Below, piece after piece: positions 363 to 18,734 of a stretch of DNA of 20,000 bases. Position numbers and translations under genes: made by a program. Numbering within the stretch: position 1 is the first letter of the stretch; each line of letters begins with the position of its first letter. The notes below the pieces were generated by a model. That model saw only the letters and a program-made list of their open reading frames with translations. It made no database searches and was not told the DNA's origin. The DNA is taken from positions 51,772-71,771 of the IMG/VR virus record IMGVR_UViG_2654588052_000002. One strand, 5' to 3'. Source of the DNA: an uncultured virus (IMG/VR IMGVR_UViG_2654588052_000002). Lineage: Duplodnaviria; Heunggongvirae; Uroviricota; Caudoviricetes.

Positions 363-473
363 TATTGTTTCCCCCTATTAATTTTTGTAAGTTTTAAAAC
401 CAGAAATCATACACACATAATAATATAATCCACTGTATTATATTTCAAATATTTTCTAAAAAAATCCATAAAT

Positions 474-518
474 AAAAAGGCACCTTTGGGGTGCCTTCCT
501 GTGACTTGAACCACTTTA
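474..518 (-). repeat. Cassette-junction repeat copy 1 (short: terminator + core)
   Basis: aaaaaggcacctttggggtgccttcctgtgacttgaaccacttta. Confidence 0.9.
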
Positions 519-557
519 TCATTACAATAAAGATGGCGTTTACAAGGATAATTGTTA

Positions 558-1028
558 TTATTTATTAATTGTAAACCAATCACTTACGCCGTAACCTATT
601 GAATCATTGACATGTTTTATAACAGCAATATAGCTACCAGGAGTATATACATCTGTAATTACAGTTGACCAAGTAGGGTTTTGGTAATTAGCATCAAATT
701 GAGGATAAATTGTTCTATAGCGTACAGGTTTTTTTCCAGCTTCAACTTTAAAAATCTTCATAACAGCTCCTGAGTCATCTTTTATTGAGCTAAGAGAGTA
801 ATTTAAGATATCTCCAGTTCTATATGATTTTTTAACCATGTGTGCATTTGGAAATTTGGATAGATATTCAAAATTATTTGGTGATGAAAATCCCCAACTA
901 TCATTATATGGATCAGAATATGGTTCTTCATAAGCTGCTGCAGCTTGTGAAGTAGGTTTAATCATTTCTACTGCAGTAAATCCCCCAAATGTTAATACTC
1001 CAACTAATGCTAATTTTCCTAATTTCAT
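558..1028 (-). CDS. Secreted protein, DUF5065-like
   Basis: 156-aa ORF, signal peptide with AAAA cleavage region, GGGGG RBS; paralog of 1..362; family name from recall. Confidence 0.8.
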   Translation of the reverse strand: MKLGKLALVGVLTFGGFTAVEMIKPTSQAAAAYEEPYSDPYNDSWGFSSPNNFEYLSKFPNAHMVKKSYRTGDILNYSLSSIKDDSGAVMKIFKVEAGKKPVRYRTIYPQFDANYQNPTWSTVITDVYTPGSYIAVIKHVNDSIGYGVSDWFTINK

Positions 1029-1127
1029 TAAAAATCCCCCTAAATATTTTAATTTAAATAATTACAATATAATGATATACTATTATGTATATTTTTTCAA
1101 ATAATTTCTAAAAAAAGTTATAAATTC

Positions 1128-1217
1128 AAAAAAAATACACCTTAAGGTGCCTTCCTCCGACTTGAATCACTTTAATTCTAAGAATATGTATTGGACTCCC
1201 ATTCAAGTATTATTTTT
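1128..1217 (-). repeat. Cassette-junction repeat copy 2 (long)
   Basis: aaaatacaccttaaggtgccttcctccgacttgaatcactttaattctaagaatatgtattggactcccattcaagtattattttt. Confidence 0.9.
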
Positions 1218-1304
1218 CTCAATGAATAATTGGTATATTTTAGGGTGTTTTTTACTATTTTTATGTTAAGATATTTTGGTTGATATTCATCTTATTTTAG
1301 GAGG

Positions 1305-1610
1305 TTGGAAGATCTGTTACATGCTTTTCATATGGATTTTAGTTTCTATACCGAAAGTATAAAAGTTTTAGGGTTATTAGGGAATTCTACTCGCTTATCA
1401 ATTGTTTGTAAATTGATTACATATGGATCGTTGTCAGTTTCTGATTTAAGTAAGCAAACAAGAATTACAGAGGATTTGATTGTACAACATTTGCGTAAAT
1501 TAGCCTCTGGAAATATTGTAATTAGTGAACGTATAGGGAAAAGGCTTTATTTCAAAATAAAAGATAATAAAACAATTGAGATTATTAAGGTATTAGGATT
1601 AATAAGTTAA
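1305..1610 (+). CDS. ArsR/SmtB-family winged-HTH transcriptional regulator (start codon uncertain)
   Basis: LGNSTRLSIV...LSVSDLSKQ...QHLRKL...SERIGKRLYF matches the ArsR pattern. AGGAGG at 1299-1304 is too close to the TTG at 1305, so the true start may be 1314 (CTG) or 1332 (ATG). Confidence 0.8.
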   Translation: MEDLLHAFHMDFSFYTESIKVLGLLGNSTRLSIVCKLITYGSLSVSDLSKQTRITEDLIVQHLRKLASGNIVISERIGKRLYFKIKDNKTIEIIKVLGLIS

Positions 1611-1705
1611 TTTTAATTACTTTCAATATAAATGATTTTGCTATAACTCAATTGTGCAAAATTATATTTAGCCCGCCTATGGAAATAGGTAGGTTTTTAA
1701 TATAC

Positions 1706-1734
1706 AAAAAGGCGCCCATATAAGGGTGCCTTTT
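1706..1734. terminator. Hairpin related to the junction-repeat terminator, between convergent ArsR and YjcZ-like genes
   Basis: aaaaaggcgccc-atataa-gggtgcctttt, A and T runs on both sides. Confidence 0.7.
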
Positions 1735-1744
1735 CCAATAGTTT

Positions 1745-1855
1745 TTAGCAGAAACAACTGCATCCGATAATGATTAATAAAATAAACAATACAACTAATA
1801 AAGCGAAACCTCCAGCGAAACCGCAGCCTTCGCCACAACTACCACCATATCCCAT
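1745..1855 (-). CDS. YjcZ/SscA-family tiny sporulation membrane peptide (36 aa), missed by the ORF track
   Basis: GGAGG RBS then MGYGGSCGEGCGFAGGFALLVVLFILLIIIGCSCFC*; GFALLVVLFILLIIIG is the family signature. Confidence 0.9.
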   Translation of the reverse strand: MGYGGSCGEGCGFAGGFALLVVLFILLIIIGCSCFC

Positions 1856-1974
1856 AACAATAGTGCCTCCTTTAGATTAGAGGGTAAAACTAGGGTTCAT
1901 TCCATGGATTTTAATGGGTTCACTTTACCTTATGTTTTCAAGAATGAATTGAGAAGGTCCTTTTGAAAATAGAG

Positions 1975-1999
1975 AAAAGACGCCATAAGGCGCCTTCCT
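1975..1999 (-). repeat. Hairpin-only remnant of the junction repeat
   Basis: aaaagacgccataaggcgccttcct; stem change is compensatory relative to consensus. Confidence 0.7.
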
Positions 2000-2055
2000 T
2001 TTAGGTAGATAAGACTTTAGTTTTCCAATAAAAAAGCCGTTAATTTGAGAATTAT

Positions 2056-2616
2056 TTATTTTTGGATTATAAGAGTGCTCTCACATTTACGACAAGTAAT
2101 CTTCTCTTCCTCAAAAATGAATAGATTTTCAGCATCACATTCTGGGCATACAACTGCAAATGGTGTTTTTATATTTTTATAGCATAGGAAAGAAAAGAAT
2201 GCCATGATTAGAGCAGGTATAATAAGCATCATAATTAAGAATAGGCCCGCAAAAACGCCTGTAATTATGGAAAGTGGTTTCATTAGTTTTCTACCTACGG
2301 AGTTTACTTGATTATCCTTTTTACGAAAAGCAGTAACAAGGTAAGTTTGGGTTTCTTTTACTGGCCTAAATGCATTTACCGTATTGCCATCTTGTTCATC
2401 CATAGTGGGATAGGAAGTGTTTGGTCCTTGATATCCTCGTTGTATATAATAATTGTTTGACTCAGCTATTCGTGGTGTATACGAGATTCCAGTTCCAGGT
2501 ACATAAGTTGTTGTTCTTGATTCAGGTGAAATAGAGTTCCCTCCCATACCTGTGTATGTAAAGTTAATTTTCACACCCGGAGAAAACTGGATAATTCTAC
2601 GAAATTTATAACCCAT
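2056..2616 (-). CDS. DUF4236-like N-terminal domain + transmembrane hairpin + C-terminal zinc ribbon
   Basis: MGYKFRRIIQFSPGVKINF...PGTGISY; hydrophobic segment; CPEC...CRKC; GAGG RBS. Confidence 0.75.
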   Translation of the reverse strand: MGYKFRRIIQFSPGVKINFTYTGMGGNSISPESRTTTYVPGTGISYTPRIAESNNYYIQRGYQGPNTSYPTMDEQDGNTVNAFRPVKETQTYLVTAFRKKDNQVNSVGRKLMKPLSIITGVFAGLFLIMMLIIPALIMAFFSFLCYKNIKTPFAVVCPECDAENLFIFEEEKITCRKCESTLIIQK

Positions 2617-2766
2617 AATATTGTATCCTCTCCATCTAATTAATATAATTATTTACTAATTATAACATTTTTTAACTTAATATTAATATATTAAGTTAAA
2701 ACAGAATAATAAAAAAGAGTAATATTGAAGTTTACTAATTTAAGGCGTTTTAGAGTCCTTTTTTAT

Positions 2767-2868
2767 AAAAAAAAAGACACCCAAAGGTGCCTTCCGACTT
2801 GAACCACTTTAATTTTAATAATATGTATTGGACTCCCGTCCAAATATTATTTTACTACCTTAAGTAAT
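2767..2868 (-). repeat. Cassette-junction repeat copy 3 (long, 3-bp deletion in core)
   Basis: aaaaagacacccaaaggtgccttccgacttgaaccactttaattttaataatatgtattggactcccgtccaaatattattttactaccttaagtaat. Confidence 0.9.
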
Positions 2869-2881
2869 GTCAGTTGTTAAG

Positions 2882-2911
2882 AAAAAAAGGCACTCTTTCG
2901 AGTACCTTTTT
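2882..2911 (-). terminator. Intrinsic terminator of the DUF4352-like gene (GCACTC/GAGTGC family)
   Basis: aaaaaaaggcactc-tttc-gagtaccttttt directly after the stop; related hairpins at 9428-9449 and 9678-9701. Confidence 0.7.
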
Positions 2912-2912
2912 C

Positions 2913-3431
2913 CTATTCTACTTTTAAATTAATTTCTTTACCTGTCATACCGCCACTAGCTTTTAAGAAAAGTCCTTCAGCATCTTTTGGTATATCAAAT
3001 ACAATTTTCCCTGTCTGTGTTAGACCAGGATTTAATTGTTTTAAGAAGAAGTCAGTTTTTCCACCGTTAGCTAAGTCAAAAGATGATTGACCTTGTACAG
3101 AAGATGTGAATTCACGACCTTTGTTATCTACCAATTTAAAGCTGTTAGTATCAACAGTGATAGCGTCTTTTTGATTATTAGTAAGTGTAACTTCTAAAAT
3201 CTTAAAGACACCTTGTGCTTGTTCTTTTGAGTATTCATTACCCACAGAATCTACTGTTTCCATAGATCCTACAGAGATTTTCACATCAGAAGATACACCT
3301 TCTTTTGATACCGCTTTAGTGTCTGTTGAAGTTTGTTCTGTTGAATCTCCACCACCAGCAACCATAGCAATTATTCCGATTACAAATAAAGCTATAATGC
3401 CTAGGCATCCAAACTTAAATATTTTTCCCAC
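2913..3431 (-). CDS. Membrane-anchored DUF4352-like (Ig-fold) surface protein
   Basis: GTG start with GGAGG RBS; N-terminal TM; VTLTNNQKDAITVDTNSFKLVDNKGREF...LNPGLTQTGKIVFDIP pattern. Confidence 0.85.
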   Translation of the reverse strand: MGKIFKFGCLGIIALFVIGIIAMVAGGGDSTEQTSTDTKAVSKEGVSSDVKISVGSMETVDSVGNEYSKEQAQGVFKILEVTLTNNQKDAITVDTNSFKLVDNKGREFTSSVQGQSSFDLANGGKTDFFLKQLNPGLTQTGKIVFDIPKDAEGLFLKASGGMTGKEINLKVE

Positions 3432-3473
3432 GTTTGTTCCTCCAATTATGTAAAATGTAAGATTGCCACGTTA

Positions 3474-3517
3474 ATAATAACAAATTAAATATCTTTATAT
3501 TGTCATATTATGTCGAA
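3474..3517 (-). promoter_or_regulatory. Putative Spo0A-activated sigmaA promoter (unit A)
   Basis: + strand TGTCATA(3501-3507)-tta-TGTCGAA(3511-3517); on - strand ATGACA-21 bp-TATTAT with TG extension. Confidence 0.7.
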
Positions 3518-3594
3518 AGGAAATAAAAAGATAGTTTAGAAGTTTTAGACTATATTTCTGTCCTATAATTTATTTTTCCCATCTATCTCTTATT

Positions 3595-3694
3595 CATAAA
3601 GAAAAGACACCCTAAGGTGCCTTCCTCTGACTTGAACCATCTTAATTAAAATAATATGTATTGGACTCCCATCCAATTATTATTTTACCATGTT
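3595..3694 (-). repeat. Cassette-junction repeat copy 4 (long)
   Basis: cataaagaaaagacaccctaaggtgccttcctctgacttgaaccatcttaattaaaataatatgtattggactcccatccaattattattttaccatgtt. Confidence 0.9.
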
Positions 3695-3716
3695 TATTAT
3701 CTGTTTTATTAAATTA

Positions 3717-4352
3717 TTACTGGGCCTCTTGCTCACCTTTAGCTTTCATTTGTTTTTCATATACATATTTTGCTGTTGAAAAATCAGTAGGAAAATCACG
3801 TAGTGCCTTATTTATAATATTTAATTCTTCTTGCGACTTAATTTCAATGTTATTTAAATAGTCAAATGCTTTGGATTGTTTATTTGCAACATAATTTTGA
3901 GTAGAATAATCATCTGGGAAGTCTTTCTTAGCTTTTTCTTTAACCTTATTCATAGCTTCTGTTTTGTCGATGTTCTTTACTGGGTTCGCTAATGTTCCAG
4001 TAGTTTGTTCCGGTTTAGGTACTTCTTTCTTTTCCGGTTGAGACTCCGGCTTTACGTCTTCTTTTTTAGGCTGTTCTTGTTCTTGCGGTTTAGGTGTTTC
4101 TTGACTCGGCTGTGTAGTTTGTTGAAGTGACCTAGTTTGCTCTTTTTCATAGGAGTCTACTTTAGATTTCAACTCTTTGATTTGTGTTTTTAATTCTTGC
4201 TGTTCATTAAAGTGTTGATCGATAAGTTTATCCATATCTTTTTGTGAATACTTAGGTTTCATATCTTCTGATTTGGAATCTTTAAAAATAGCTACGGAAG
4301 CAATGATAGCTACTAGTACAGCGATAATTCCAATGATTAGTTTTTTGTTCAT
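3717..4352 (-). CDS. Membrane-anchored/secreted protein: coiled coil, Q/P/E linker and a duplicated C-terminal motif
   Basis: N-terminal TM, AGGAGG RBS; internal repeat DFPDDYSTQNYVANKQ / DFPTDFSTAKYVYEKQ. Confidence 0.8.
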   Translation of the reverse strand: MNKKLIIGIIAVLVAIIASVAIFKDSKSEDMKPKYSQKDMDKLIDQHFNEQQELKTQIKELKSKVDSYEKEQTRSLQQTTQPSQETPKPQEQEQPKKEDVKPESQPEKKEVPKPEQTTGTLANPVKNIDKTEAMNKVKEKAKKDFPDDYSTQNYVANKQSKAFDYLNNIEIKSQEELNIINKALRDFPTDFSTAKYVYEKQMKAKGEQEAQ

Positions 4353-4411
4353 TTATGTTCCTCCTAGAATACAATAATATTATTATATAACAATTAAATG
4401 ATTGTAGGTAG

Positions 4412-4462
4412 AAAAAAAGACACCCAAAGGTGCCTTCCTCCGACTTGAACCATCTTAATTTT
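4412..4462 (-). repeat. Cassette-junction repeat copy 5 (short)
   Basis: aaaaaaagacacccaaaggtgccttcctccgacttgaaccatcttaatttt. Confidence 0.9.
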
Positions 4463-4563
4463 GAAAAATGGCATTGAAGGAATTTCTTTATTTATAACTA
4501 TATTAGGGATGTTAATAATGGTATTTTATAGTGATATGAAAAAATTAATTATTAATGAATTTA

Positions 4564-4618
4564 AAATAAAAAGAAGACCGAACTAGAATAACAATCTAGT
4601 TCGGTCTTCTTTTTATTT
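4564..4618. terminator. Perfect 24-bp inverted repeat downstream of the LCI-like gene
   Basis: aaataaaaagaagaccgaactaga-N7-tctagttcggtcttctttttattt. Confidence 0.8.
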
Positions 4619-4647
4619 GTTTACTTGGAAAACTTAATTAAAGTTTC

Positions 4648-4941
4648 TTAATTATTACTTGTTCGCCATCCTTCATAATGGCCTGTCCATGAATTTTTAC
4701 TTACTTCAGTTGCTCCTTTTAAATACCAAGTCACTCCATCCCACTCTTTTACAGTAGGTATTTCCCCTTTTGATTTGTAACCAGGAAAGTCTTGTTTTTC
4801 TTTTTTCTTAACAAAACTTTTTTTATTATCAATCGTTTTTAATTTTACACCTGTATCAGTAGGTGTTTCCGCAAGTACTCCTCCAGCACCAGATAACATA
4901 ATTCCAGTTGCTAATGTTCCAATTATTACTTTCTTGAACAT
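4648..4941 (-). CDS. Secreted LCI-fold protein (putative antimicrobial peptide precursor)
   Basis: Sec signal peptide ending VLA; C-terminus DGVTWYLKG...WTGHYEGW resembles B. subtilis LCI (DGTKWIFKS...WVGIYEVW). Confidence 0.7.
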   Translation of the reverse strand: MFKKVIIGTLATGIMLSGAGGVLAETPTDTGVKLKTIDNKKSFVKKKEKQDFPGYKSKGEIPTVKEWDGVTWYLKGATEVSKNSWTGHYEGWRTSNN

Positions 4942-5237
4942 GAAAAATCCCCCTTTTTTGGAATGAATATTACATAAATAACAATACCATATTATTTGTA
5001 TTTTCTAACATTTGAATTTATTTATAAATATTTAATTGAATATTCAAACTATACAATTAAAATGAAAAGATTTAAAAATAATTAGTTCTATTAGTAGTGA
5101 ATCTCAAGTCAATGATTGGAAGAAAACTAAATTATTTATGGGGTAAGAAGTATAGAACTCAAACTTTTTTTTGAATTTATATTCAAAAGTTTACTTTCAA
5201 ATTAGAAAAGGCTAGTCCCTCGATACCCTTTTTGGAA

Positions 5238-5282
5238 ATAAAGAAAAGACACCCTAAGGCGCCTTCCTTCGACTTGAACCAC
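5238..5282 (-). repeat. Cassette-junction repeat copy 6 (short)
   Basis: ataaagaaaagacaccctaaggcgccttccttcgacttgaaccac. Confidence 0.9.
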
Positions 5283-5748
5283 CTCATATTAATGCAGTAT
5301 AAATTAATAAAATAATTTATATAAATATTTTGTTATACTTCCATGTCCCCTAGCTGATATAATGTATAAGGAAATTATTGGCTAATTAATAGTACATATA
5401 TATTTGGTGTACTGCCAATATCTTAACGAAAATACATACTAAGCAAGATTTGACATGAAAAAGCGTTGATTTTACTACTCTTAGCGATATCTCCAACAAA
5501 TGCACTTTAATGTAAAAGATGCGCCTTCTCCAGTAATTATGGATGATATTTTACTGATTTTTATAAAGATGAATTATAAGAGGTTTACACTCTTATTTAT
5601 AAGCATCTAATATTTTTGGATACACACACATTAGATAGATCTAAAAGGGCTGTTATAAACGAATATGAGAAGCCTTTTTAAAAGATATTTTCTGGTTTAA
5701 TATTTTTATTAGAAATGAAATGTTTGTTTTTTAAAGGGGGTAGCGATA

Positions 5749-7326
5749 TTGATAAGATTTATAATGCTTGATAATAAACAAAATGAATTTAATTTCAAAA
5801 ATTATACAGATGAATTAATGCGTAAAGTTGAACAAACTTTAAATTTAACACACTTATCATTTAATCATACTGAGGAATCTAAACGTAGTTGTTCTCTAAT
5901 CTTAGCTGAAAAAGAATATTTTGTTGACTTTAGCATTATGTTTAATCTGCTTGGGGCTGATCAACTAAGAGTAGATATTTCAACAAAAGAAAATACTGCT
6001 GTTGATAAGGATTTACATAATTTGAAAATAATGTTGAAAGACCTAATGGTAGAAGAATGGATGCAATGTGTTTGGCTTGTAGATTATCAATCAGAAGAAT
6101 TTGCTGAAGATCTATATAAAAATATTCACTCTGTTGAAAATAGTTTACGACGTCTAATTAATGCTGTTTTATCTCATCATTTAGGAATTGAATGGTGGAG
6201 TTTCATGCCCACTCACTTAACAAAAAAATATTCCCAAAGAATCAATGGTTATCGAGAGAAAGCACCAGGATTTAAAGATGTCTATGCAAATTTGTTATCC
6301 ATTGATACTAGCGATTTGATTAGCATTCTAAAATTCAAGACATATAAGATAAAAAGTCAATCAATTTTTAACACACCTGACCCTTTTTCACCTGATTCAT
6401 TGGTTCATAATCCAGCTCTTGTTCAATTTCAATATATTATGAGTGATATTATAAATAATGATAAATCAATAGAAGATCATAGAGCTGATTTGACTAAATT
6501 ATTAGAGGAACAAATGGAAGTAGATATAGATTTTTGGGAAAGTTTTTTTTCTCCATTATTTTCTTGTACACTAAGGGAGTTTAGTGGGAAATGGGAGAAT
6601 TTTAGTAAGGATAGGAATCACGTAGCTCATAATAAGTTAATTGATGATAAGCTCTATCGAAAATTTAAGAGGGTTATGGATGATTTATTTGGGAAAATAA
6701 CCGAAGCAGAGGAAAAGTTTGAGGAGGTTCTAAAAATAAAATCTGATGACTTCCTAGAATATATGAAGATGTACGAAGCTGAAAATCTTCATAGAGTCCA
6801 AATCGAATCTAGACAGGCCATTGCAGAACAGGCAGGAATAGAGATTCTGAGTCAAGATCAAATCTTTTTCTTATTTCTAGAGCATGTTCATGAAACTTTT
6901 GGAAATATTAGCGATACAATTTACTATAGAACTGATATTGATGTGACTTATGATGAACCTGAAACATTAGAATCAGAAAAGATATTCGAGGTTAAAAATA
7001 ATATTCTTGGAACAAGTATACATGTAGATGCGGATACACTAATAGACGAAGAAGTTGGATGCACTAGTACATTGAAACTATCAGTTTATTATAATGCTAA
7101 TCTCAAGGAAAACTTTGAAATTAGTTTTTTAAATGGTGAGGCAGAATATAATGATGATCAAGGTACTTATATGCCTAAAATAGCAGATGAGCTTGACGTT
7201 TCAGATTTAGAAAAAATAGAGAATTATATCTTTGGATTATTAGAAAAAGAGATGCCAGAGATTTCTGAGGATGATCTTGCTTCCTTTATTCGTGAAACTA
7301 TAAAAAGAAATTCTGGAGATTTTTGA
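5749..7326 (+). CDS. HEPN-domain protein (Swt1-like), predicted RNase / anti-phage effector
   Basis: IHSVENSLRRLI...WW N-terminal HEPN helix and RNHVAH (Rx4H) catalytic motif; acidic C-terminal domain; TTG start with AGGGGG RBS. Confidence 0.7.
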   Translation: MIRFIMLDNKQNEFNFKNYTDELMRKVEQTLNLTHLSFNHTEESKRSCSLILAEKEYFVDFSIMFNLLGADQLRVDISTKENTAVDKDLHNLKIMLKDLMVEEWMQCVWLVDYQSEEFAEDLYKNIHSVENSLRRLINAVLSHHLGIEWWSFMPTHLTKKYSQRINGYREKAPGFKDVYANLLSIDTSDLISILKFKTYKIKSQSIFNTPDPFSPDSLVHNPALVQFQYIMSDIINNDKSIEDHRADLTKLLEEQMEVDIDFWESFFSPLFSCTLREFSGKWENFSKDRNHVAHNKLIDDKLYRKFKRVMDDLFGKITEAEEKFEEVLKIKSDDFLEYMKMYEAENLHRVQIESRQAIAEQAGIEILSQDQIFFLFLEHVHETFGNISDTIYYRTDIDVTYDEPETLESEKIFEVKNNILGTSIHVDADTLIDEEVGCTSTLKLSVYYNANLKENFEISFLNGEAEYNDDQGTYMPKIADELDVSDLEKIENYIFGLLEKEMPEISEDDLASFIRETIKRNSGDF

Positions 7327-7364
7327 GAATAATCTTGCTTTGTTTGTGTGTGAAAGGTAGGGGG

Positions 7365-7405
7365 AATTAACTACTTTAAAATAACAGTTTTTAAAGTAGT
7401 TAATT
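7365..7405. terminator. 17-bp perfect inverted repeat between HEPN gene and downstream membrane gene
   Basis: aattaactactttaaaa-N7-ttttaaagtagttaatt; AT-rich, so it could be an operator or mRNA-processing stem rather than a terminator. Confidence 0.5.
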
Positions 7406-7438
7406 TATGTTTAATAATATATAGAAGGTGAGAACATA

Positions 7439-8269
7439 ATGAATTGCAACAATGGTAGTTTTACTAACTATGCCAAACAAGATAAAAGTGGGTGGTACTT
7501 GCTTGTATGGAATAAAGAAACTAATAAAATCGAGAAAAATTTCGATTATAAAAATATACAGAAAATAAAAGGTGAGAATATCACTACAACAGCCTTAAAT
7601 TATTTGAAAAAGGATGGGTTGTTTCATACTGTTGATACGAAAAATGTATTGAAATATGAGATAACTCTTCTTTTTTATCAAAAAAAGAAAGTCACAAGTC
7701 GCTATATCATGAAATATAAGGAAAAAATAAACGCTATAGATGGTTATTATGATGGATGGGAATATACAGTGAAAAATGAGAATGGAGTGTTTGGAACTTA
7801 TGATAAAGATTATACTTTCTGGAAAGCACATAAAGTTCCAATATCACTAACCATCTTTCAGATACTTTGCATATTATGTTTATATATATACTCAGAGCAA
7901 ATAACTATTTTTATTAAAGAAATAATGTATAAGGACCACAATGTGGGAACTTATGATAGATATTATAGGTTGTTGAGTGGAATAGTTGCGTTTGTACTGT
8001 TTGTTGTAGCAATAATCAATTCTACTTTTACTATAATATTAAAAGATTCGATTAAGCAGCATTATTTAAAAGATAGTCAAATAAGACTTATTTGCTCAAT
8101 TGTTATTTTCGAAATTCCTGTCCTCTTAGCTACACTCATAACAGCATGGAATATAAGTCAGGTTGTAGGGGGAGCAACTTTTAACTCACTTTTAATCTTT
8201 AGTTGCATATTTATGGGTATAAAAATTGCATTTACATACTTTTTAGAAATAGAAAAAAGACAGAAATAA
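7439..8269 (+). CDS. Hypothetical protein with soluble N-terminal domain and about 4 C-terminal TM helices
   Basis: 276-aa ORF, AAGGTGA RBS, four hydrophobic segments in the C-terminal half. Confidence 0.7.
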   Translation: MNCNNGSFTNYAKQDKSGWYLLVWNKETNKIEKNFDYKNIQKIKGENITTTALNYLKKDGLFHTVDTKNVLKYEITLLFYQKKKVTSRYIMKYKEKINAIDGYYDGWEYTVKNENGVFGTYDKDYTFWKAHKVPISLTIFQILCILCLYIYSEQITIFIKEIMYKDHNVGTYDRYYRLLSGIVAFVLFVVAIINSTFTIILKDSIKQHYLKDSQIRLICSIVIFEIPVLLATLITAWNISQVVGGATFNSLLIFSCIFMGIKIAFTYFLEIEKRQK

Positions 8270-8444
8270 TTAAAGGTAGTGTTCAGTGACAATAAAATTT
8301 TTTAAAAAGATGGTATGGAATTTAGATTCTCATACCAACTTTTGTTACTTCTCTGTATAATAAAAAATGAATATTTCAAGTTAACGAATTAGCAGTATGC
8401 TATTTAATTTATATGAGTCGTGCATATTCTGCGGGGCTTTTTTT

Positions 8445-8566
8445 CATAAAGAAAAGACACCCAAAGGTGCCTTTCTCCGACTTGAACCATCTTAATTTTA
8501 ATAATATGTATTGGACGCCAATCCAATTATTATTTTATCACGTTAAGTAATATTGTACATTGAGAA
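8445..8566 (-). repeat. Cassette-junction repeat copy 7 (long)
   Basis: cataaagaaaagacacccaaaggtgcctttctccgacttgaaccatcttaattttaataatatgtattggacgccaatccaattattattttatcacgttaagtaat...cattgagaa. Confidence 0.9.
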
Positions 8567-8593
8567 ATTTGGCATACCTCTTTATTTAAACGT

Positions 8594-8622
8594 AAAAAGT
8601 CCTAGAGGGGCTAGGACTTTTT
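8594..8622. terminator. Bidirectional intrinsic terminator
   Basis: aaaaagtcctag-agggg-ctaggacttttt. Confidence 0.75.
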
Positions 8623-8716
8623 GACAGAATGAAAATGATTCAAAAAAGGACTTGTATAACGTAACATATGAATGTTTCATAAATGTATCGTAAAAGTGAA
8701 AAAAATCTATATTTTG

Positions 8717-9376
8717 TTATTTTACTCCATCTCTTTCTAATGCTTCTTTTAGCATTCCTTCAGCTTCTTTTCTAATTTCTTCAGGTGTCATCTGGTCCAC
8801 TGGTTTATAATTACCGTTTTTATCGTAGTCGGCTGTGTTAGTTTTTGGCTCATTTGTAGATGGCGGAACAGATTTATTAGGGTTCTCGTGTGTTATAACT
8901 TGAGATGCAGGAGATCCCTCTGTTTTAGACCTGTTTTGCTTTGTTAACTCTTCTTCTAACTTTTTTACTTGATCATCAAGAGCTTTATTTTCTGTTTCTA
9001 ATGTTTTTATGTTTTTGTGAAGTACCTCATTTTCTTCAACGATTTGTTCATTAAAGTTTAGTCGGTTCATAGGTTCTTTTTCTGGTGATATACCTACTAT
9101 AATAATTGCCATTAACATTAGTAATCCTGAAAAAACGAAATGATCTTTTGCTGTTTTTTTTAATAAGAGTTTAATAAATCCTTTAATTAAATAATAAATC
9201 CCGATAATTATAGTGTAAGTGAACGTCATAAACATGGTATGGAAAATCGTTCTAGATGTGAGGCTTGGGAATTCTCCAATTGTTTCATAAAGCGCACCAT
9301 ATGTAACTATTAAAATTGCAGCATACATTATCGTCAACATTAAGACGACAATTAAAAATCTTTTAAATAGTGTCAA
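8717..9376 (-). CDS. Membrane protein: 3 TM helices + coiled coil + small C-terminal domain
   Basis: TTG start with AGGAGG RBS; hydrophobic N-terminal half; heptad region LHKNIKTLETENKALDDQVKKLEEEL. Confidence 0.8.
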   Translation of the reverse strand: MTLFKRFLIVVLMLTIMYAAILIVTYGALYETIGEFPSLTSRTIFHTMFMTFTYTIIIGIYYLIKGFIKLLLKKTAKDHFVFSGLLMLMAIIIVGISPEKEPMNRLNFNEQIVEENEVLHKNIKTLETENKALDDQVKKLEEELTKQNRSKTEGSPASQVITHENPNKSVPPSTNEPKTNTADYDKNGNYKPVDQMTPEEIRKEAEGMLKEALERDGVK

Positions 9377-9452
9377 AGCTATTCCTCCTGTAAATCTTAG
9401 ATGTATTAGATAATTTAATAAAAAAATAAAAGCACTCTTTTGAGTGCCTATT

Positions 9453-9584
9453 TTAAGCAGATACAGTAGCTTTACCTTTACGGAAGATACCCATTAATCC
9501 ACCAATCATTAAAGCTATAAACGCGCAAATAAGACCAAAAATACCACCAATAAGACCTAATACAAATTCAGTTGTTCGTTTCAT
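9453..9584 (-). pseudogene. Internally deleted DUF4064-like membrane protein (43 aa)
   Basis: MKRTTEFVLGLIGGIFGLICAFIALMIGG fused directly to LMGIFRKGKATVSA; N- and C-termini typical of ~115-aa B. cereus DUF4064 proteins as recalled, middle helices missing. Confidence 0.6.
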
Positions 9585-9626
9585 TATAATCTCTTTAATT
9601 ATGTAAAATGTAAGATTTCCGAGCTT

Positions 9627-9670
9627 ATCATAGCAAACAATCAATTCAAATATTGTCATATTATGTCGAA
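9627..9670 (-). promoter_or_regulatory. Putative Spo0A-activated sigmaA promoter (unit B)
   Basis: TGTCATA(9654-9660)-tta-TGTCGAA(9664-9670); - strand ATGACA-21 bp-TATGAT with TG extension. Confidence 0.7.
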
Positions 9671-9711
9671 TGGAAACAAAAAAGCACTCATAAGAGTGCT
9701 TATCCTTCAAT

Positions 9712-10410
9712 CTAATGTTTTTTACTAGATTTTTTATGTCCTTTATTTCGTTCACAAGCTACACCATCGCCATCACGATCTAAATGCGAAGCATAAGCTG
9801 GGCTATCTGGAGTTATATCATAGTAACCAGCATTATTTGCATCTGTACAGTTTGCAAAGTGAACTTTCTCTTGTTTAGGTGCAGCTTGTTGCTGAGGTGC
9901 TGTATTAGCTGCAGCTTTTTGTTGCTCCTGTTCTTTTGCTCGAGCTGCTTCTTGTTGTTTCTTTTGTTCTTCCTGTTGTCTTTGAGACTCTTCTTGTTTG
10001 CGTTGTTCATCTAATCGCTTTTGCTCTTCGGCTTTTTTCTGTTCTTCCAATTGCTTTTGCTCTTCGGCTTTTTTCTGTTCTTCCAATTGCTTTTGCTCTT
10101 CAGCCTTTTTTTGTTCTTCTAACTTCTTTTGCTCGTCTAACTTTTTCTGTTCTTCAGCTTTTTGTTTTTCTTCATTTTCTTTTTGCTTATCTTTGTCCTC
10201 TTGCTTTACTTCAGCAGCAGTTGTTTTTACTTTTGTATCTTTAGCCTTTTCGCTTTTAGGAGAAAATGAGAAAAATACCATCGATAAAATTAAACAAGAA
10301 ATTGCTGAAATAGCGAGTTTCTTTTTACTCTTTCTTCTAACAGCAGCGACAATTAGCAATACTAAAAATATAAGTGCGGCTAAAAAGAATAATGCCATTA
10401 ATGCTTCCAT
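9712..10410 (-). CDS. Surface protein: 2 TM + E/Q/K coiled-coil repeats + C-terminal Excalibur Ca-binding domain
   Basis: FANCTDA...Y...LDRDGDGVACE Excalibur motif; ATG at 10410 has a GAGG RBS (ORF track start 10428 is likely too long). Confidence 0.85.
   Translation of the reverse strand: MEALMALFFLAALIFLVLLIVAAVRRKSKKKLAISAISCLILSMVFFSFSPKSEKAKDTKVKTTAAEVKQEDKDKQKENEEKQKAEEQKKLDEQKKLEEQKKAEEQKQLEEQKKAEEQKQLEEQKKAEEQKRLDEQRKQEESQRQQEEQKKQQEAARAKEQEQQKAAANTAPQQQAAPKQEKVHFANCTDANNAGYYDITPDSPAYASHLDRDGDGVACERNKGHKKSSKKH
10018..10163 (-). repeat. Coding tandem repeat, 36-bp unit (KKAEEQKQLEEQ) built from 18-bp subunits
   Basis: cttttgctcttcggcttttttctgttcttccaattg twice exactly, followed by degenerate copies. 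Confidence 0.9.
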
Positions 10411-10472
10411 AATCGGGCCTCTTTTCAAATAATATAGATTTTGAGAATCACATAATGTAAGATTTCTGGATA

Positions 10473-10516
10473 ATCATATCAAAATAAACATCTGTATATT
10501 GTCATATCGTGTCGAA
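10473..10516 (-). promoter_or_regulatory. Putative Spo0A-activated sigmaA promoter (unit C)
   Basis: TGTCATA(10500-10506)-tcg-TGTCGAA(10510-10516); - strand ATGACA-21 bp-TATGAT with TG extension. Confidence 0.7.
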
Positions 10517-10548
10517 TGAAAATAAAAAAGAGAGCCGAAGCCCTCTTA

Positions 10549-11019
10549 TTATATTCCTAATAGTTGTTTCTTTTTTGCTGTAAACTCTTCTTCTGTTAGA
10601 ATCCCTTGATCTTTCAATGCAGCTAGTTTAGTGATTTCGTCAGCGACAGAATAGGTATTTACAGGATTTGTTGTAGAAGAATGGTCATTAGAAGCGGAAG
10701 TATTTTTTTCTTGTTCGTTCATGTACCCTTCTATTAAATCTTTTGCTTTTAAGAAATTGTTATATTCGTGTTTATTAAACATGACAGTATTTTCATCTTT
10801 TGCCAAGTCAGAGGTGGATTTAGTTTTTACTTCAGAGCTTCCAGGGAAAACGAATTGAATATAACCATGTGAAAGGAAGCCTGGTGGTTTGAATTGTATA
10901 CCCGTAAGACTTTTGATTTGGATTTCTTTAGATCCCCTACCGATCAAACGAGAGTATTTAATAGTAATTTTAGTTGGTGTGACTACTAGTGTACTTAGTT
11001 GCCCTTTAAATTCTAGCAT
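10549..11019 (-). CDS. DUF4429/PH-like domain + C-terminal SHOCT domain protein
   Basis: KEIQIKSLTGIQFKPPG...GYIQF...DENTVMF and ADEITKLAALKDQGILTEEEFTAKKKQLLGI (SHOCT). Confidence 0.85.
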   Translation of the reverse strand: MLEFKGQLSTLVVTPTKITIKYSRLIGRGSKEIQIKSLTGIQFKPPGFLSHGYIQFVFPGSSEVKTKSTSDLAKDENTVMFNKHEYNNFLKAKDLIEGYMNEQEKNTSASNDHSSTTNPVNTYSVADEITKLAALKDQGILTEEEFTAKKKQLLGI

Positions 11020-11061
11020 GTATATCTCCTTTTTATAACAATTTATATTGATAATAAGATG

Positions 11062-11105
11062 ATAATAGCAAATTACACCTTCTTAATTTGTCATATTCTG
11101 TCGAA
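11062..11105 (-). promoter_or_regulatory. Putative Spo0A-activated sigmaA promoter (unit D)
   Basis: TGTCATA(11089-11095)-ttc-TGTCGAA(11099-11105); - strand ATGACA-21 bp-TATTAT with TG extension. Confidence 0.7.
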
Positions 11106-11112
11106 AGGTAAG

Positions 11113-11229
11113 AAAAAAGACACCCTAAGGTGCCTTCCTCCGACTTGAACCACTTTAATTTTAATAATATGTATTGGACGTCAATCTAAATATTATTTTA
11201 CCATGTTAAATTGTTTTGTTCATTGAGAA
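11113..11229 (-). repeat. Cassette-junction repeat copy 8 (long)
   Basis: aaaaaagacaccctaaggtgccttcctccgacttgaaccactttaattttaataatatgtattggacgtcaatctaaatattattttaccatgttaa...cattgagaa. Confidence 0.9.
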
Positions 11230-11380
11230 CAAGATAAGATACACGAGTCGTTTTTCCTTCTTCTCGATCAACTACATCTGGTTCTGCTGCTAATATATTT
11301 TCTCCTCTGCAATTATATATCTCTATCATACTATATAATTGTCAGCGGGTTTTTATATCGTTATTCAAATTTATTAATAT

Positions 11381-11602
11381 TTATATTTTTAAATACATAG
11401 CTGAAAAAGAATTCACGACACAATACAAATAAATTCCTATAGCAAAGAATGCTAGTAAAAGTCTTAATAATTTGTCCTTACAATATATACTTACTAGTAT
11501 TCCAAAAGGAACTAGTAAAATTAGTGGTGCGCACAACAATAAAATGCCTTTATATAAGCTGTCAGTTGTAAGCTGATTAATAAGTTCTATATAGAGTGAC
11601 AT
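11381..11602 (-). CDS. Small 2-TM membrane protein
   Basis: 73 aa, AAAGGA RBS, two hydrophobic segments; lies between two junction repeats. Confidence 0.65.
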   Translation of the reverse strand: MSLYIELINQLTTDSLYKGILLLCAPLILLVPFGILVSIYCKDKLLRLLLAFFAIGIYLYCVVNSFSAMYLKI

Positions 11603-11656
11603 ATGGTGTTCCTTTCTAAAACTAATCTATTTATTGTTATAATACATTATATATTC

Positions 11657-11712
11657 CATAAAGAAAAGACACCCAAAGGTGCCTTCCTCCGACTTGAATC
11701 ACTTTAATTTTA
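11657..11712 (-). repeat. Cassette-junction repeat copy 9 (short)
   Basis: cataaagaaaagacacccaaaggtgccttcctccgacttgaatcactttaatttta. Confidence 0.9.
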
Positions 11713-11826
11713 CTTTTACAATATTTCATCTGCTATTTGAAAAGAAGTTCCCCCTCTTAGTAAAAAAAGTATCACTTAATATACCTAAGGCATATAGTGA
11801 GTATGACTATATGGGAGGGGTTAAAT

Positions 11827-12204
11827 TTGAGTAGATATGAAGAACTGGAAGCGTTCGGAACTAGTTATCCTGAAATTCATCATTGGCATATCAAACATTG
11901 TAGATATAGAGTTTATGTAGCAATAGCTATTCCAAGTTGGAATCATGGTGATTTTAATGATTATGAAATAAGTGTTGTACGTAAATGCTTGGATCAGGGA
12001 GCAAACAGGGCACGACAACATCTTGCTCGATTTGGAGATAGTTTAGGTCATATAAACGAACTTTCTAAAGTCCAATCAGCACTTGATCATGCTCGAGAAG
12101 ATGTTATAGCGGTAATGTCTTATTGTGCGAGTCAAGATCCAGAGTTAGCAAAAATCCCTGCTAATATATTGGATTATAAAGTGTTTTCTAGAAAACATTG
12201 TTGA
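11827..12204 (+). CDS. Hypothetical cytoplasmic protein (about 125 aa)
   Basis: In-frame TTG at 11827 follows GGGAGGGG RBS (ORF track start 11797 lacks an RBS); no recognisable family. Confidence 0.65.
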   Translation: MSRYEELEAFGTSYPEIHHWHIKHCRYRVYVAIAIPSWNHGDFNDYEISVVRKCLDQGANRARQHLARFGDSLGHINELSKVQSALDHAREDVIAVMSYCASQDPELAKIPANILDYKVFSRKHC

Positions 12205-12270
12205 TAATGTTTTCTAAATTAGAAGTTATAACTTGTATTATTGAGCATAGATACTAATCTATGCTTTTTT

Positions 12271-12357
12271 CATAAAAAAAGACACCCTAAGGTGCCTTCC
12301 TCCGACTTGATCCACTTTAATTTTAATCATATGTATTGGACGCCAATCCACATATTA
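12271..12357 (-). repeat. Cassette-junction repeat copy 10 (long, abuts OLD stop codon)
   Basis: cataaaaaaagacaccctaaggtgccttcctccgacttgatccactttaattttaatcatatgtattggacgccaatccacatatta. Confidence 0.9.
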
Positions 12358-14064
12358 CTTCTCATTCCACCATTTTTGTATTTCTTTAATCAAAGGAAAA
12401 CGCTCAGCTTCTTCTTTAGACATTTTATTTGCGACTTCTTCCCCTACCTTGATTTTATTACGAATTCCAGGTACCTCATCAAAGTTTCCATAATCAAGGG
12501 TTTCAACTTCTTTACCTAAAACATCTGCCAAAATTTCCTTTGGATACATATTTTCTAATGTTCTATAGTCCTTAATCATTAAGAATTCAACATTATTTTC
12601 AATACATTCATCTTTATAATCTGATTTTACTTGTTTTATATTCCCGCCTTCAGCTTCGGATTTAGGTAGATCACTATCAATAATGACCATACTTTTTTCA
12701 TGCAACTTTTTTAAATCTTTTGCATCAATCTGAAAGAGATTTTCACCACCAAGAGGGATAATTAATATTCGTTCCCTTTCTATGTTTAAACCAACTTTAT
12801 CTAATAGTATGGTTAAGATGGTCACCTCAGTTTGTCCCTCAACAAATATTACACCTGTTGCAGAAAGAGCTAAAGGTAAATAAGCACCTAAAGTACTAAA
12901 AACAACATCTTTATTAGAGATATCAATTTCCTGACAATTTGTTTGTTGGCCATCATGCTTAATTAAATATAGTTTCTCTTTATCTTTTAAAGATTGTAAT
13001 ATAAAGGGAGAATGGGTTGCCAATACCCATTGTATTGAAAATTCACGAGAAATCTTTCTAATTAACTTAATAAATCTTTGCTGTAGCATTGGATGTAAAC
13101 CTATTTCAGGCTCGTCAATAAATACAATATTCATTTTGGAAAAATTATTTAGCACCTTGGCAACGAAAAACATAGTATTATAGATTCCATCACCACTTCG
13201 GGATAATGGTTGTTCTTTTTCATTTCCATTTTGGTTCCAAATTAAAAATATATCCTCAGATTTTTCATCTCCTTGAGTTCTATTTATTTCAACCCTTACT
13301 AATTCTGGAAGTAAAATTTTGAAATATTCCATGGATGTTTTATATTTTCCGGAAGTTTTCCCTCTTTCTGAACAAATCTCTTTGAAATAATTAACTAATT
13401 GTAATTTTTTATCCTCTTCTTTACTAAAAGCTTGTTCGTTACTTCTTGTAACACCTGGAACATATAAAGAATTCAGATTCTTCATAGAGTACTCAAATTC
13501 AGTTAAATATGTAATTATACGGTATAACATGTTTGGAAAATCAGTAATTTTATCATATCCAAAAAACTCTTGAACATGATTATTCCAAGATTTAAAATCA
13601 ACATAAGATTGAAATTCATCAAATATGCTTTGTCTAAGCGGGAGGCTTAGTAGTATTACTGCGTCTGAAAAAAACTGTTTAACCTTTTCTCTTTGAATAT
13701 CGATCCTTTGGTCATTTAAATCTTTTAATTCTTTTTCGAAATATTGATCTTCATCTACATACTTCCATAGTTTCTCTAAATCTTCTTTTGTACATTTAAG
13801 AGATAATCTGATACATTGTTGGGAGGTATCTTGAGAAAACCCTTTACGATGCGTACTTCCATCCAATAATTTAGATAGATCCTTATCCATTTCTGTACCG
13901 ACATTTATACAACTATTTAAACCTAAAAATGAGGCTAATAAAGCCGAAGTTTTCCCAGTATCATTAATTCCTGAGAGGACGGTAATGTTACTAATATCTA
14001 GCTTTAGTGGTGGATTACTTCCAATAGACCTAAAATTACTTATTTCAATACTATTTATATACAT
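12355..14064 (-). CDS. OLD-family ATP-dependent nuclease (ABC ATPase + TOPRIM), predicted anti-phage
   Basis: ISNFRSI, Walker A GINDTGKTS, signature SGDG, Walker B FIDEPEIGLHP, ATHSP, TOPRIM FVEGQTE and IIDSD, TLEN. Confidence 0.9.
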   Translation of the reverse strand: MYINSIEISNFRSIGSNPPLKLDISNITVLSGINDTGKTSALLASFLGLNSCINVGTEMDKDLSKLLDGSTHRKGFSQDTSQQCIRLSLKCTKEDLEKLWKYVDEDQYFEKELKDLNDQRIDIQREKVKQFFSDAVILLSLPLRQSIFDEFQSYVDFKSWNNHVQEFFGYDKITDFPNMLYRIITYLTEFEYSMKNLNSLYVPGVTRSNEQAFSKEEDKKLQLVNYFKEICSERGKTSGKYKTSMEYFKILLPELVRVEINRTQGDEKSEDIFLIWNQNGNEKEQPLSRSGDGIYNTMFFVAKVLNNFSKMNIVFIDEPEIGLHPMLQQRFIKLIRKISREFSIQWVLATHSPFILQSLKDKEKLYLIKHDGQQTNCQEIDISNKDVVFSTLGAYLPLALSATGVIFVEGQTEVTILTILLDKVGLNIERERILIIPLGGENLFQIDAKDLKKLHEKSMVIIDSDLPKSEAEGGNIKQVKSDYKDECIENNVEFLMIKDYRTLENMYPKEILADVLGKEVETLDYGNFDEVPGIRNKIKVGEEVANKMSKEEAERFPLIKEIQKWWNEK

Positions 14065-14263
14065 ATGAAAGCCTCCGATACAGTTTGAAATTTAAGTTTG
14101 AATAAAATAAAAAGTTTTTAAACATAAAATTATAATAGCATAAGTTTAGAATGTATCAGGGATATAGCTAGCTATATCTTCCCTTTTTATTACTCTCTAA
14201 TAAGGGATAACAACCTATTAATGTATTTTTAATCTTGTTGAGATACAAGTGTTTTGTCCAATG

Positions 14264-14365
14264 AAAAAAAGACACCCTCAGGTGCCTTCCTCCGACTTGA
14301 ACCACTTTACTTTTAATAATATGATTGGACGCCAATCTAATTATTATTTTACCACGTTAAGTAAT
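14264..14365 (-). repeat. Cassette-junction repeat copy 11 (long)
   Basis: aaaaaaagacaccctcaggtgccttcctccgacttgaaccactttacttttaataatatgattggacgccaatctaattattattttaccacgttaagtaat. Confidence 0.9.
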
Positions 14366-14429
14366 CTTTTTTCAAAAGGTTGGAAATTCAACCTGTTTTT
14401 TGATATATTTCGATTAAGGAGGCGTTGAG

Positions 14430-15779: not shown

Positions 15780-15780
15780 T

Positions 15781-18695: not shown

Positions 18696-18734
18696 AAAAA
18701 ATGTTATAATTTATGAGAGTGAGGTGATACATAA

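Follow-up and report, generated by a model that had tools for sequence, protein, structure and literature searches.

Promoter-early stem-loop (PeSL) cassettes are described in T4-like phages as composite promoter/terminator motifs of hyperplastic regions; the reports state that ORFans are shuffled, and mini-circles formed, through homologous recombination between these motifs, and they present the promoter or terminator activity and the mini-circles as demonstrated (PMC2839356, PMC4122927). The present analysis concerns a short intergenic repeat that recurs between unrelated genes in the final 20 kb of IMG/VR virus record IMGVR_UViG_2654588052_000002; this 20,000-nucleotide (nt) stretch is termed the window. 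Over its full 71,771 bp the record matches plasmid pBTHD521-3 of Bacillus thuringiensis serovar indiana HD521 at 100% identity once a rotation of 468 nt is allowed for, and the window coordinate is thus the plasmid record coordinate minus 52239. An earlier reading of the window, made from the letters and open reading frames (ORFs) and here called the sequence-only reading, had described an integron-like array in which 11 co-oriented copies of one junction repeat separate unrelated gene cassettes. The repeat appears to be a portable regulatory boundary, i.e. a terminator module, that doubles as a patch of homology, with the cassettes between its copies exchanged by general homologous recombination. 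We give this interpretation a probability of roughly 0.6.

SPRITE is a dispersed intergenic repeat of approximately 100 nt built around a terminator-like hairpin, and we know of no cassette-array arrangement for it. It is described as a Rho-independent-terminator-like repeat of Streptococcus pneumoniae (PMC3184786). The bcr repeats of the Bacillus cereus group are described as intergenic sequences of 100–300 nt with a predicted RNA structure (PMC6542083, PMC6199540, PMC3184786). For strain HD521, a supplement counts bcr4–bcr17 at most four times each and bcr18 not at all (PMC6542083), and bcr2 and bcr3 are reported only on chromosomes.

The repeat array of pBTHD521-3

pBTHD521-3 is a siphovirus-type phage-plasmid. 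It displays phage genes for terminase, portal, tape-measure, holin and lysin, and also encodes ParA, a replisome organiser, a Sak-like single-strand annealing protein (SSAP), a RecU-like resolvase and a small serine invertase. The window covers the accessory region on the lysogeny side of this element; its lysis-lysogeny genes are AimR, a small AimP-like ORF and a cI/Cro pair. The repeat array is located between the partition module and the AimR/cI module (the lysis-lysogeny switch), and the accessory genes are mostly co-directional with the cI-like repressor, i.e. on the minus strand.

A scan of the window with a 25-nt core, allowing up to 3 mismatches, gives 10 matches, all on the plus strand and starting at positions 490, 1146, 3616, 4429, 5258, 8466, 11129, 11678, 12291 and 14281; 200 shuffles give 0 matches. 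These starts are offset from the copy starts given in the sequence-only reading because a hairpin of approximately 16 nt precedes the core. An 11th copy, c2767, has a 3-nt deletion in the core and is recovered by repeat finding and by an nhmmer profile. The profile built from the 11 copies finds 15 matches in the 71,771-bp record, with 15/15 on the same strand (two-sided binomial p = 6e-5). All are within 18 kb, at record positions 48255–66139 (window −3516 to 14368), and the profile search of the whole record shows no match in the remaining ~54 kb. The array therefore begins about 3.5 kb to the left of the window. The copies are intergenic, save for overlaps of a few bases with stop codons. 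Core scan, profile and direct reading recover all 11 copies and both hairpin remnants that had been listed earlier, co-oriented and intergenic as described. The 50-nt core that had been taken as the unit has to be revised, as the unit is 65–150 nt long and is read on the minus strand, the strand of most genes.

Anatomy of the repeat unit

The anatomy was established from alignments of the 11 window copies and of 67 long-form copies from many genomes. The minus-strand consensus of the 67 copies is TTTCTCAATGAAC-AAAATTACTTAACATGGTAAAAT-AATATTTGGATGGGAGTCCAATACATATTATT-AAAATTAAAGTGGTTCAAGTCGGAGGAAGG-CACCTTAGGGTGTCTTTTCTTT. On this strand the long form displays, in order, an extended −10-like motif (TGnTAAAAT, 85–95% conserved), an AU-rich hairpin of 7+6 bp (hairpin 1), the invariant purine-rich tract GTGGTTCAAGTCGGAGGAAGG, which contains TTCAAGTC and GGAGG and runs into the last element, and an intrinsic terminator of 10–13 stem pairs followed by T4–9 (terminator scan and RNAalifold). 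On the plus strand the terminator stem is followed by TTCCTCC and there is no U-tract. G·U is the commonest state in 4/12 terminator pairs, and these would be A·C mismatches in a plus-strand RNA; the hairpin therefore appears to be shaped for a minus-strand RNA. Minus-strand folds have z = −2.5 to −3.6, compared with −0.6 to −2.0 for the two plus-strand folds tested. The 67 copies have a mean column identity of 73% with invariant core columns, and the unit is asymmetric (hairpin, linker, terminator).

Three nested forms of the repeat share a common 3′ end and have ragged 5′ ends. The constant 3′ part, i.e. purine-rich tract and terminator, is about 55–65 nt. The full form includes the CTCAATG/−10 part. 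Long-form copies in the window, all read on the minus strand as are those below, are c1128 (1126–1233), c2767 (2764–2871), c3595 (3594–3702), c8445 (8443–8555), c11113 (11108–11216) and c14264 (14259–14368). A promoter scan calls a promoter with TG at c14264, c11113 and c8445, and the best promoter-like match is TTGAAA-18-TAAAAT with TG at c14264. The second form starts at hairpin 1, an example being c12271 (12272–12367), which begins at the stop codon of the OLD-like gene and has no promoter-like part. The core-only form of approximately 55–65 nt is that of c474, c4412, c5238 and c11657. Copy c474 (470–578, record 52241–52349), located 3′ of the DUF5065 gene at 558–1028, consists of core and terminator with a 5′ half that is not of the hairpin-1 type; c4412 (4408–4519), c5238 (5234–5347) and c11657 (11655–11767) likewise have core and terminator and a divergent 5′ half.

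Two remnants on the minus strand accompany these copies. The first, at 1706–1736, is a hairpin-only remnant and is the yjcZ terminator, GGCACCC..GGGCGCC plus T-run by direct reading; the hairpin is at 1730–1711, the T-run at 1710–1706, and the stem is related to that of the repeat. The second, at 1967–2000 upstream of yjcZ, is a degenerate core and terminator with a terminator-like hairpin at 1998–1975, and is a partial profile match (family D5).

Rfam, against which the sequence-only reading had proposed to compare the repeat, gives 0 matches at gathering thresholds and thus no family. At E ≤ 10 only weak matches touch the copies, e.g. Atu_C8 at 19.9 bits (threshold 50) and BTnc231 at 18 (threshold 80.4).

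Other readings of the unit were tried and set aside. A minus-strand ORF that starts at an ATG/GTG dimorphism and a plus-strand ORF that ends at a conserved TAA both traverse the repeat; a coding reading is rejected because of 1-, 2- and 4-nt indels in hairpin 1 and because there is no Shine-Dalgarno (SD) sequence. A classical attenuator is ruled out, as direct reading finds nothing upstream of the terminator that can pair with either arm. A plus-strand promoter, with TTGAAC as the −35 or with an extracytoplasmic function (ECF)-type motif, has spacings that by eye are unsuitable.

The position of the repeat relative to genes was analyzed in 132 distinct copies having at least 300 nt on each side. 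In 81 an ORF of 60 or more codons in the same orientation precedes the copy, with the ORF stop 14–232 nt before the core, and in 57 the ORF on the opposite side is convergent. This context fits a 3′ boundary module.

Breakpoints and cassette exchange

Six related phage-plasmids, pBTHD521-3, pBCA2, pBCK802, NR1 unnamed1, pBwiPL1-2 and pFORC087.3, were compared in the accessory region. Homology blocks were taken from BLAST (at least 300 bp and at least 85% identity), and a block end was counted when located 30 nt or less from a copy. By this measure 132 of 366 block ends are near a copy, with 20.6 expected under random placement. Unique intergenic ends give 63/155 against an expected 23.4 ± 4.4, the maximum in 2000 simulations being 37. 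The sequence-only reading had suggested a check of whether gene gain and loss breakpoints are inside the repeat; the junctions of gain, loss and reordering do fall in it or at it.

Cassette maps show identical blocks that are present, absent or reordered across the six phage-plasmids. Collinearity with pBCK802 stops at 5282, which is within c5238, and collinearity with pBCA2 stops at 8568, 13 nt off c8445. In pFORC087.3, window segment −1185 to 518 is joined straight to 2765–3700 within one repeat, which brings DUF5065a next to the DUF4352 cassette. The junction repeat has a 5′ part that is c2767 and a 3′ part of the c474 type. pBCK802 has the order SHOCT-repeat-OLD, where the window has two extra cassettes between three repeats. 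Further joints come from RNA data, which consist of four runs from other strains, two of these (X6 and X10) being contigs that show presence and joints only; the joints 480>1138, 1979>4423 and 4454>5302 in contigs from another strain are all within copies. Some breakpoints are off the main repeat, either at the second repeat family D6 (e.g. 10517) or inside genes such as Excalibur. Pairwise X-drop extension shows that homology stops either at the 3′ edge of the repeat, 28–33 nt beyond the anchor, or where the shared core ends on its 5′ side.

The copies themselves are mosaic. Four polymorphic sites are found along the repeat, i.e. hairpin-1 loop type, AAAGTGG vs AAGATGG, terminator loop and T-run, and all four haplotype combinations are present at 6/6 site pairs in the 67 copies. 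Exchange has therefore taken place in several intervals and not at one point.

In the mechanism proposed here, the purine-rich tract and the minus-strand intrinsic terminator would form the constant 3′ part of a boundary, to which the long form would add the AU-rich hairpin and the extended −10-like motif. The 15 co-oriented copies would bound separately transcribed “moron” and defence cassettes and, provided that the terminator acts in vivo as predicted, would probably insulate one from another. Phage-plasmids, megaplasmids, prophages and chromosomes all have the same 55–110 nt between unrelated genes, and this shared sequence would supply homology; general homologous recombination could therefore move whole cassettes, with recombination between copies deleting, inserting or swapping them. 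The agent of exchange may be host RecA, or the Sak-like annealing protein of the element itself together with RecU. According to a published report, temperate phages undergo relaxed homologous exchange that is driven by Rad52-like phage recombinases (PMC3945230).

Several points weigh against a terminator boundary that serves as a homology patch. Terminator function leaves the invariant 20-nt tract upstream of the stem unexplained; here the sequence-only reading, which held that terminator function alone is insufficient, was correct. The long form is found directly after another hairpin and T-run in 16/46 copies (18/230 control segments). Two orphan copies serve no gene as a terminator: c8445 is flanked by convergent genes, and c14264 is placed where the OLD-like gene and AriA diverge. 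The module thus goes beyond a gene's own terminator. Examples of a preceding terminator in the window are the one at 2875–2909, which belongs to the DUF4352 gene and directly precedes c2767, and another at 8598–8612, before c8445. Covariation for either hairpin is the same as in shuffles because the copies are too alike. Copies from the genome collection were selected by an exact 18-mer, and core invariance there is partly by construction. As the six plasmids are related, the breakpoints counted are not independent events, and crossovers can be placed, from the alignments, only to within the shared core. Recurrent mutation could be behind part of the four-gamete pattern at single-base sites. 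Finally, in RNA run X23, a stranded run from another strain, ~50 reads cross the hairpin and T-run, the strand convention of the library being ambiguous because the first mates are oriented one way on four minus-strand genes and the other way on the Excalibur/SHOCT pair. This read-through could be due to a leaky terminator; if the reads are plus-strand RNA, no termination is expected.

RNA evidence and a possible small RNA

In run X23, moreover, reads connect a homologue of the Excalibur gene (3′ end) with a long-form copy (5′ end). Ten molecules start at position 12306, which has equivalents in other copies, 3 nt upstream of GGAGG in the repeat core, and read starts also pile up at 10418/10419 near the start of the Excalibur gene, where the strand sense is ambiguous. 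In run X21 the reads are almost solely on a yjcZ-like stretch. STAB-SD is the 5′ stabiliser of B. thuringiensis cry3A. The 5′ ends at 12306 recall STAB-SD, and by this analogy they could mark a processing or stall site; they could also be an artefact.

The main alternative to a boundary and homology patch is a small RNA gene: the long form would be a transcription unit of ~80 nt in its own right, present in 10–20 copies per genome, that comprises an extended −10 promoter, a hairpin at the 5′ end, a conserved single-stranded tract with GGAGG and a terminator of its own. Cassette exchange would then be a by-product of the multicopy state. Features noted above favour such a gene: the conserved TG-n-TAAAAT and the promoters called with TG, the frequent position directly behind another terminator, the orphan copies between convergent or divergent genes, the lower fold z values of the minus strand and the G·U pairs specific to minus-strand RNA; in addition there is no contradicting Rfam family. 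On the other hand, about one third of the copies have no promoter part and some, such as c12271, begin directly at a stop codon. Overall there is no enrichment of promoter-like sites (81 vs 76.5 in shuffles), the X23 reads that join the upstream gene to the repeat indicate co-transcription, and this run shows no 5′ end at the predicted start. Covariation is absent and no target was identified. An RNA gene of this kind is thus unlikely, though it is the strongest of the competing explanations.

A wider form of this proposal makes the repeat a mobile regulatory cassette, i.e. an ~80-nt RNA gene and exchange point in one, with Sak/RecU looping out defence and surface-protein cassettes as mini-circles that are traded among phage-plasmids, megaplasmids and chromosomes. 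We regard it as rather more doubtful than the small RNA gene by itself. If true, it would be a Gram-positive, temperate-phage counterpart of the PeSL mini-circles with an added RNA function. A candidate for that function is a STAB-SD-like GGAGG stabiliser, at which the X23 5′ ends hint.

Distribution of the repeat family

The exact 18-nt core word is found in 100 stretches of a species-representative genome collection. Of these, 70 score at least 45 bits by profile and are treated as true copies; the other 30 comprise 26 without a profile match and 4 that score under 20 bits in unrelated metagenome-assembled genomes. Among the titles listed, true copies are from B. cereus-group species and from one record labelled “Paenibacillus sp.”. 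Five of the copy-bearing genomes have 10, 16, 20, 14 and 11 matches, which are clustered. Among 31 relatives of one copy-bearing genome, 18 have matches, and the 13 without are mostly smaller genomes. The plasmid database PLSDB has 1273 places on 427 records (425 Bacillus), almost all unannotated, with up to 14 places per record among the 30 records listed. Ten distinct B. cereus-group phages (15 records) have one copy each. As judged by these searches, the repeat family is specific to the B. cereus group and group-wide. The presence of copies on megaplasmids and chromosomes shows that the family is therefore not a phage invention. The density is 15 copies in 18 kb on pBTHD521-3, compared with 10–20 copies in 5–6 Mb for the genomes searched.

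In the plasmid prophage IEBH the copy is next to the 3′ end of a DUF4352 gene, and again the region is the one between rep/par and repressor. IEBH also encodes an Hfq-like protein (3606–3878) approximately 1.1 kb from its repeat copy and DUF4352 cassette.

The chromosomal clusters of one B. thuringiensis genome are located among variable genes of an ordinary kind, near a NEAT/LRR surface protein, a lactococcin-972-like cluster and an RNPP regulator; further neighbours are sortase and Excalibur, DUF4352 and transporters. The 58 ORFs scanned in these clusters include no phage or recombinase gene. On a B. thuringiensis chromosome (stretch 3700–5100), the intergenic DNA around one copy displays at least three other short repeat families, at query positions 42–109, 316–402 and 921–994, and each of the three matches many places in relatives.

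The distribution bears on whether the repeat is a non-autonomous mobile element, similar to miniature inverted-repeat transposable elements (MITEs) or bcr repeats, that inserts itself at intergenic or terminator regions, the array then being due to repeated insertion and not to cassette exchange. The family is dispersed and clade-restricted with many copies per genome and on plasmids, many copies are right behind a pre-existing terminator, and TTTAT, the reported bcr target motif, is present at the 3′ edge of 36/63 copies. TTTAT is at the 5′ edge in only 5/63 copies, however, and there is therefore no symmetric duplication. The alignments show no terminal inverted repeats (TIRs), and the ragged 5′ ends and three nested forms also argue against such an element. 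A filled and empty site pair was not found, since the gene block differs as well in every phage-plasmid comparison; in the empty-site comparison of a chromosomal copy, the locus is not conserved in 30 relatives and only its repeats match. Self-insertion is therefore improbable as the origin of the array.

Cassettes and neighbouring genes

The cassette blocks between copies occupy window positions 1–14064 on both strands. In order they are DUF5065a, DUF5065b, ArsR with YjcZ, DUF4236, DUF4352, a transmembrane protein, LCI, a pair of 525 and 276 amino acids (aa) on the plus strand, a group of hyp219, a 44-aa ORF, Excalibur and SHOCT, a 73-aa ORF, hyp125 on the plus strand, and the OLD-like gene. 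PARIS (AriA and AriB, 14430–16635, plus strand) is directly past the last copy and is supported by PADLOC, as is the OLD/GajA-like ATPase-TOPRIM protein. The SHOCT gene product carries SHOCT/DUF4429. Cassette genes on the plus strand are ArsR, the 5749–8269 pair and 11827–12204. Promoter-like sites are predicted upstream of individual cassette genes, e.g. TTGAAA-17-TATTAT at 448–420. The gene labels of the sequence-only reading stand for both DUF5065 genes, ArsR, YjcZ, DUF4236, DUF4352, LCI, Excalibur, SHOCT/DUF4429, OLD-like and PARIS; the HEPN label for 5749–7326 is weak, with a Pfam E-value of 6e-4 that is below the curated cut-off.

The repeat-bounded pair at 5749–8269 (plus strand) consists of a 525-aa protein with a weak Swt1-like HEPN/PDC-M34B match and a 276-aa membrane protein, and is also present in pBCA2; the two genes may form a defence system that has yet to be described. 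The DUF5065 cassettes are tandem duplicates that have diverged, with 46% protein identity and 72–77% DNA identity in the parts that align, promoter regions included; the duplicate segments are 246–384 vs 912–1050 and 404–478 vs 1056–1130. The Excalibur gene (9712–10428, minus strand) displays a K/E/Q-rich tract of 36-nt tandem repeats at 9913–10185. An ATG at 10410 with the SD-like sequence GAAAAGAGG upstream yields an N-terminal membrane anchor; the RefSeq start is at 10281.

The second repeat family, D6, is 86 nt long and is found on the minus strand at 3444–3529, 9597–9682, 10443–10528 and 11032–11117, in the upstream region of minus-strand genes. D6 is often directly after the main repeat, as at c11113, where a D6 copy and then the SHOCT gene come next, and the D6 motif TTCGACAKAAT also trails copies in other genomes. 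A third small family, D9/D13, is a terminator hairpin, GCACTCTTTnGAGTRC plus T-run, at 2875–2909, 9417–9451 and 9669–9703; in several genomes this hairpin is found ahead of the main repeat. A separate element at 4568–4614, downstream of LCI and outside of the repeat family, is a perfect palindrome of 20 bp that resembles a bidirectional terminator and has A- and T-runs. At 17547–18890 the window has an arbitrium-type module, i.e. AimR and a 51-aa ORF in the AimP position. The AimR of pBCA2 is annotated as two pieces (30077–30592 and 30646–31248).

Homologous versus site-specific exchange

A six-frame search of the whole 71.8-kb record with PF00589 (Phage_integrase) gives 0 matches, with controls positive in 14/14 genomes, and the annotation of pBTHD521-3 (87 features) lists no integrase. 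The earlier statement that no integrase is in the window is thus extended to tyrosine recombinases in the whole plasmid. The sole recombinase encoded, which is what the proposed search for a linked tyrosine or serine enzyme has produced, is the small serine invertase, ~36 kb from the first copy of the array. Core-only copies that lack hairpin 1 also mark junctions.

From these sequence data general homologous recombination between copies is favoured over site-specific exchange. The sequence-only reading had proposed that the repeat is a recombination or attachment site used by a site-specific recombinase or by RecA/phage-recombinase exchange: cassettes are indeed gained, lost and reordered at the repeat, and the RecA/phage-recombinase option is the one favoured, but a site-specific attachment site does not agree with the presence of the repeat in chromosomal regions without recombinase genes or with exchange at several points. 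An integron-like or otherwise site-specific system, in which a dedicated recombinase crosses over at the repeat and moves cassettes in and out as circles, would account for the co-orientation of 15/15 copies and the junctions in the repeat, and the serine invertase and the hairpin 1 inverted repeat (predicted as a possible protein-binding site) could be its parts, but the lack of a tyrosine recombinase, the distance of the invertase, the junctions at short-form copies, the chromosomal clusters, the high primary-sequence identity of the copies (unlike attC), the promoter-like sites and mixed gene orientation of the cassettes and the four haplotypes at every site pair make it highly improbable.

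Comparison with known systems

Integron attC sites are imperfect palindromes that are conserved in structure and not in sequence. The array of pBTHD521-3 resembles an integron in having co-oriented junction elements between unrelated blocks of mostly 1–2 genes, with gain and loss at the junctions. It is not an integron, and none of the three defining features looked for was found. Neither IntI nor any other tyrosine recombinase is encoded, and attI and a common promoter Pc are absent. The copies are conserved in sequence and asymmetric, and are not imperfect palindromes of the attC kind. Integron cassettes are promoterless, co-oriented and served by a common Pc, whereas the cassettes here have promoter-like sites of their own and genes on both strands. 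Exchange at the repeat, moreover, is not confined to one point. The label “integron-like” given in the sequence-only reading therefore finds no support.

Similarities to the bcr repeats as described are the restriction to the same clade, the intergenic position and the predicted RNA structure, and some bcr groups are linked to rearrangements (PMC6542083, PMC6199540, PMC3184786). pBTHD521-3 alone carries at least 12 copies of the present repeat, compared with the published counts of four or fewer for each of bcr4–bcr17 in HD521 (PMC6542083), and the B. anthracis Bcr1 and Bant-1 copies printed in a supplement (PMC2267715) look unrelated by eye. Unlike bcr group A and MITEs, the repeat has no flanking TTTAT direct repeats and no TIRs. 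It is probably not one of bcr1–bcr18, from which it is set apart by counts, locations and printed copies and not by consensus alignment. SPRITE is similar as a dispersed intergenic repeat with a terminator-like hairpin, but is of another genus and another sequence. Literature searches by repeat sequence and by topic (B. cereus phage-plasmid repeats and hotspots) found no description of the repeat. The family is thus an unannotated and abundant non-coding element, and it may have an RNA function.

The closest working analogue, by comparison of organization with the published descriptions, appears to be the PeSL of T4-like phages. Each is a short, composite, intergenic motif. PeSLs combine a terminator stem-loop, in which G-T pairs are likewise noted, with a sigma-70/A-type promoter; the present repeat has a terminator-like hairpin and, in the long form, a promoter-like part with the extended −10-like motif. 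Both are concentrated in a variable, ORFan-rich phage region, here with 15/15 matches in 18 kb of 72 kb, and in both cases indels and replacements among close relatives are bounded by the motif and are attributed to homologous recombination. The sequences are unrelated, however, and the present repeat is in a Gram-positive host on a temperate siphovirus phage-plasmid. Its terminator is downstream of the promoter-like part and the invariant tract, and a transcript from the repeat would thus stop within ~80 nt. In addition the B. cereus repeat is also located on megaplasmids and chromosomes and is known here from its sequence, where the PeSL reports include demonstrated activity.

Phage-plasmids and megaplasmids of the B. 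cereus group have fast-changing sets of defence and secreted/surface genes, represented here by PARIS and the OLD-like nuclease. If the repeat supplies the homology for exchange, the assembly of such a hotspot would be explained without an integrase, and the repeat would be a simple sequence marker for cassette arrays and for new accessory or defence genes in this group. The PeSL idea, in which regulatory motifs act as recombination modules, was put forward for lytic T4-like phages and would then apply to temperate Gram-positive elements and the chromosomes of their hosts too.

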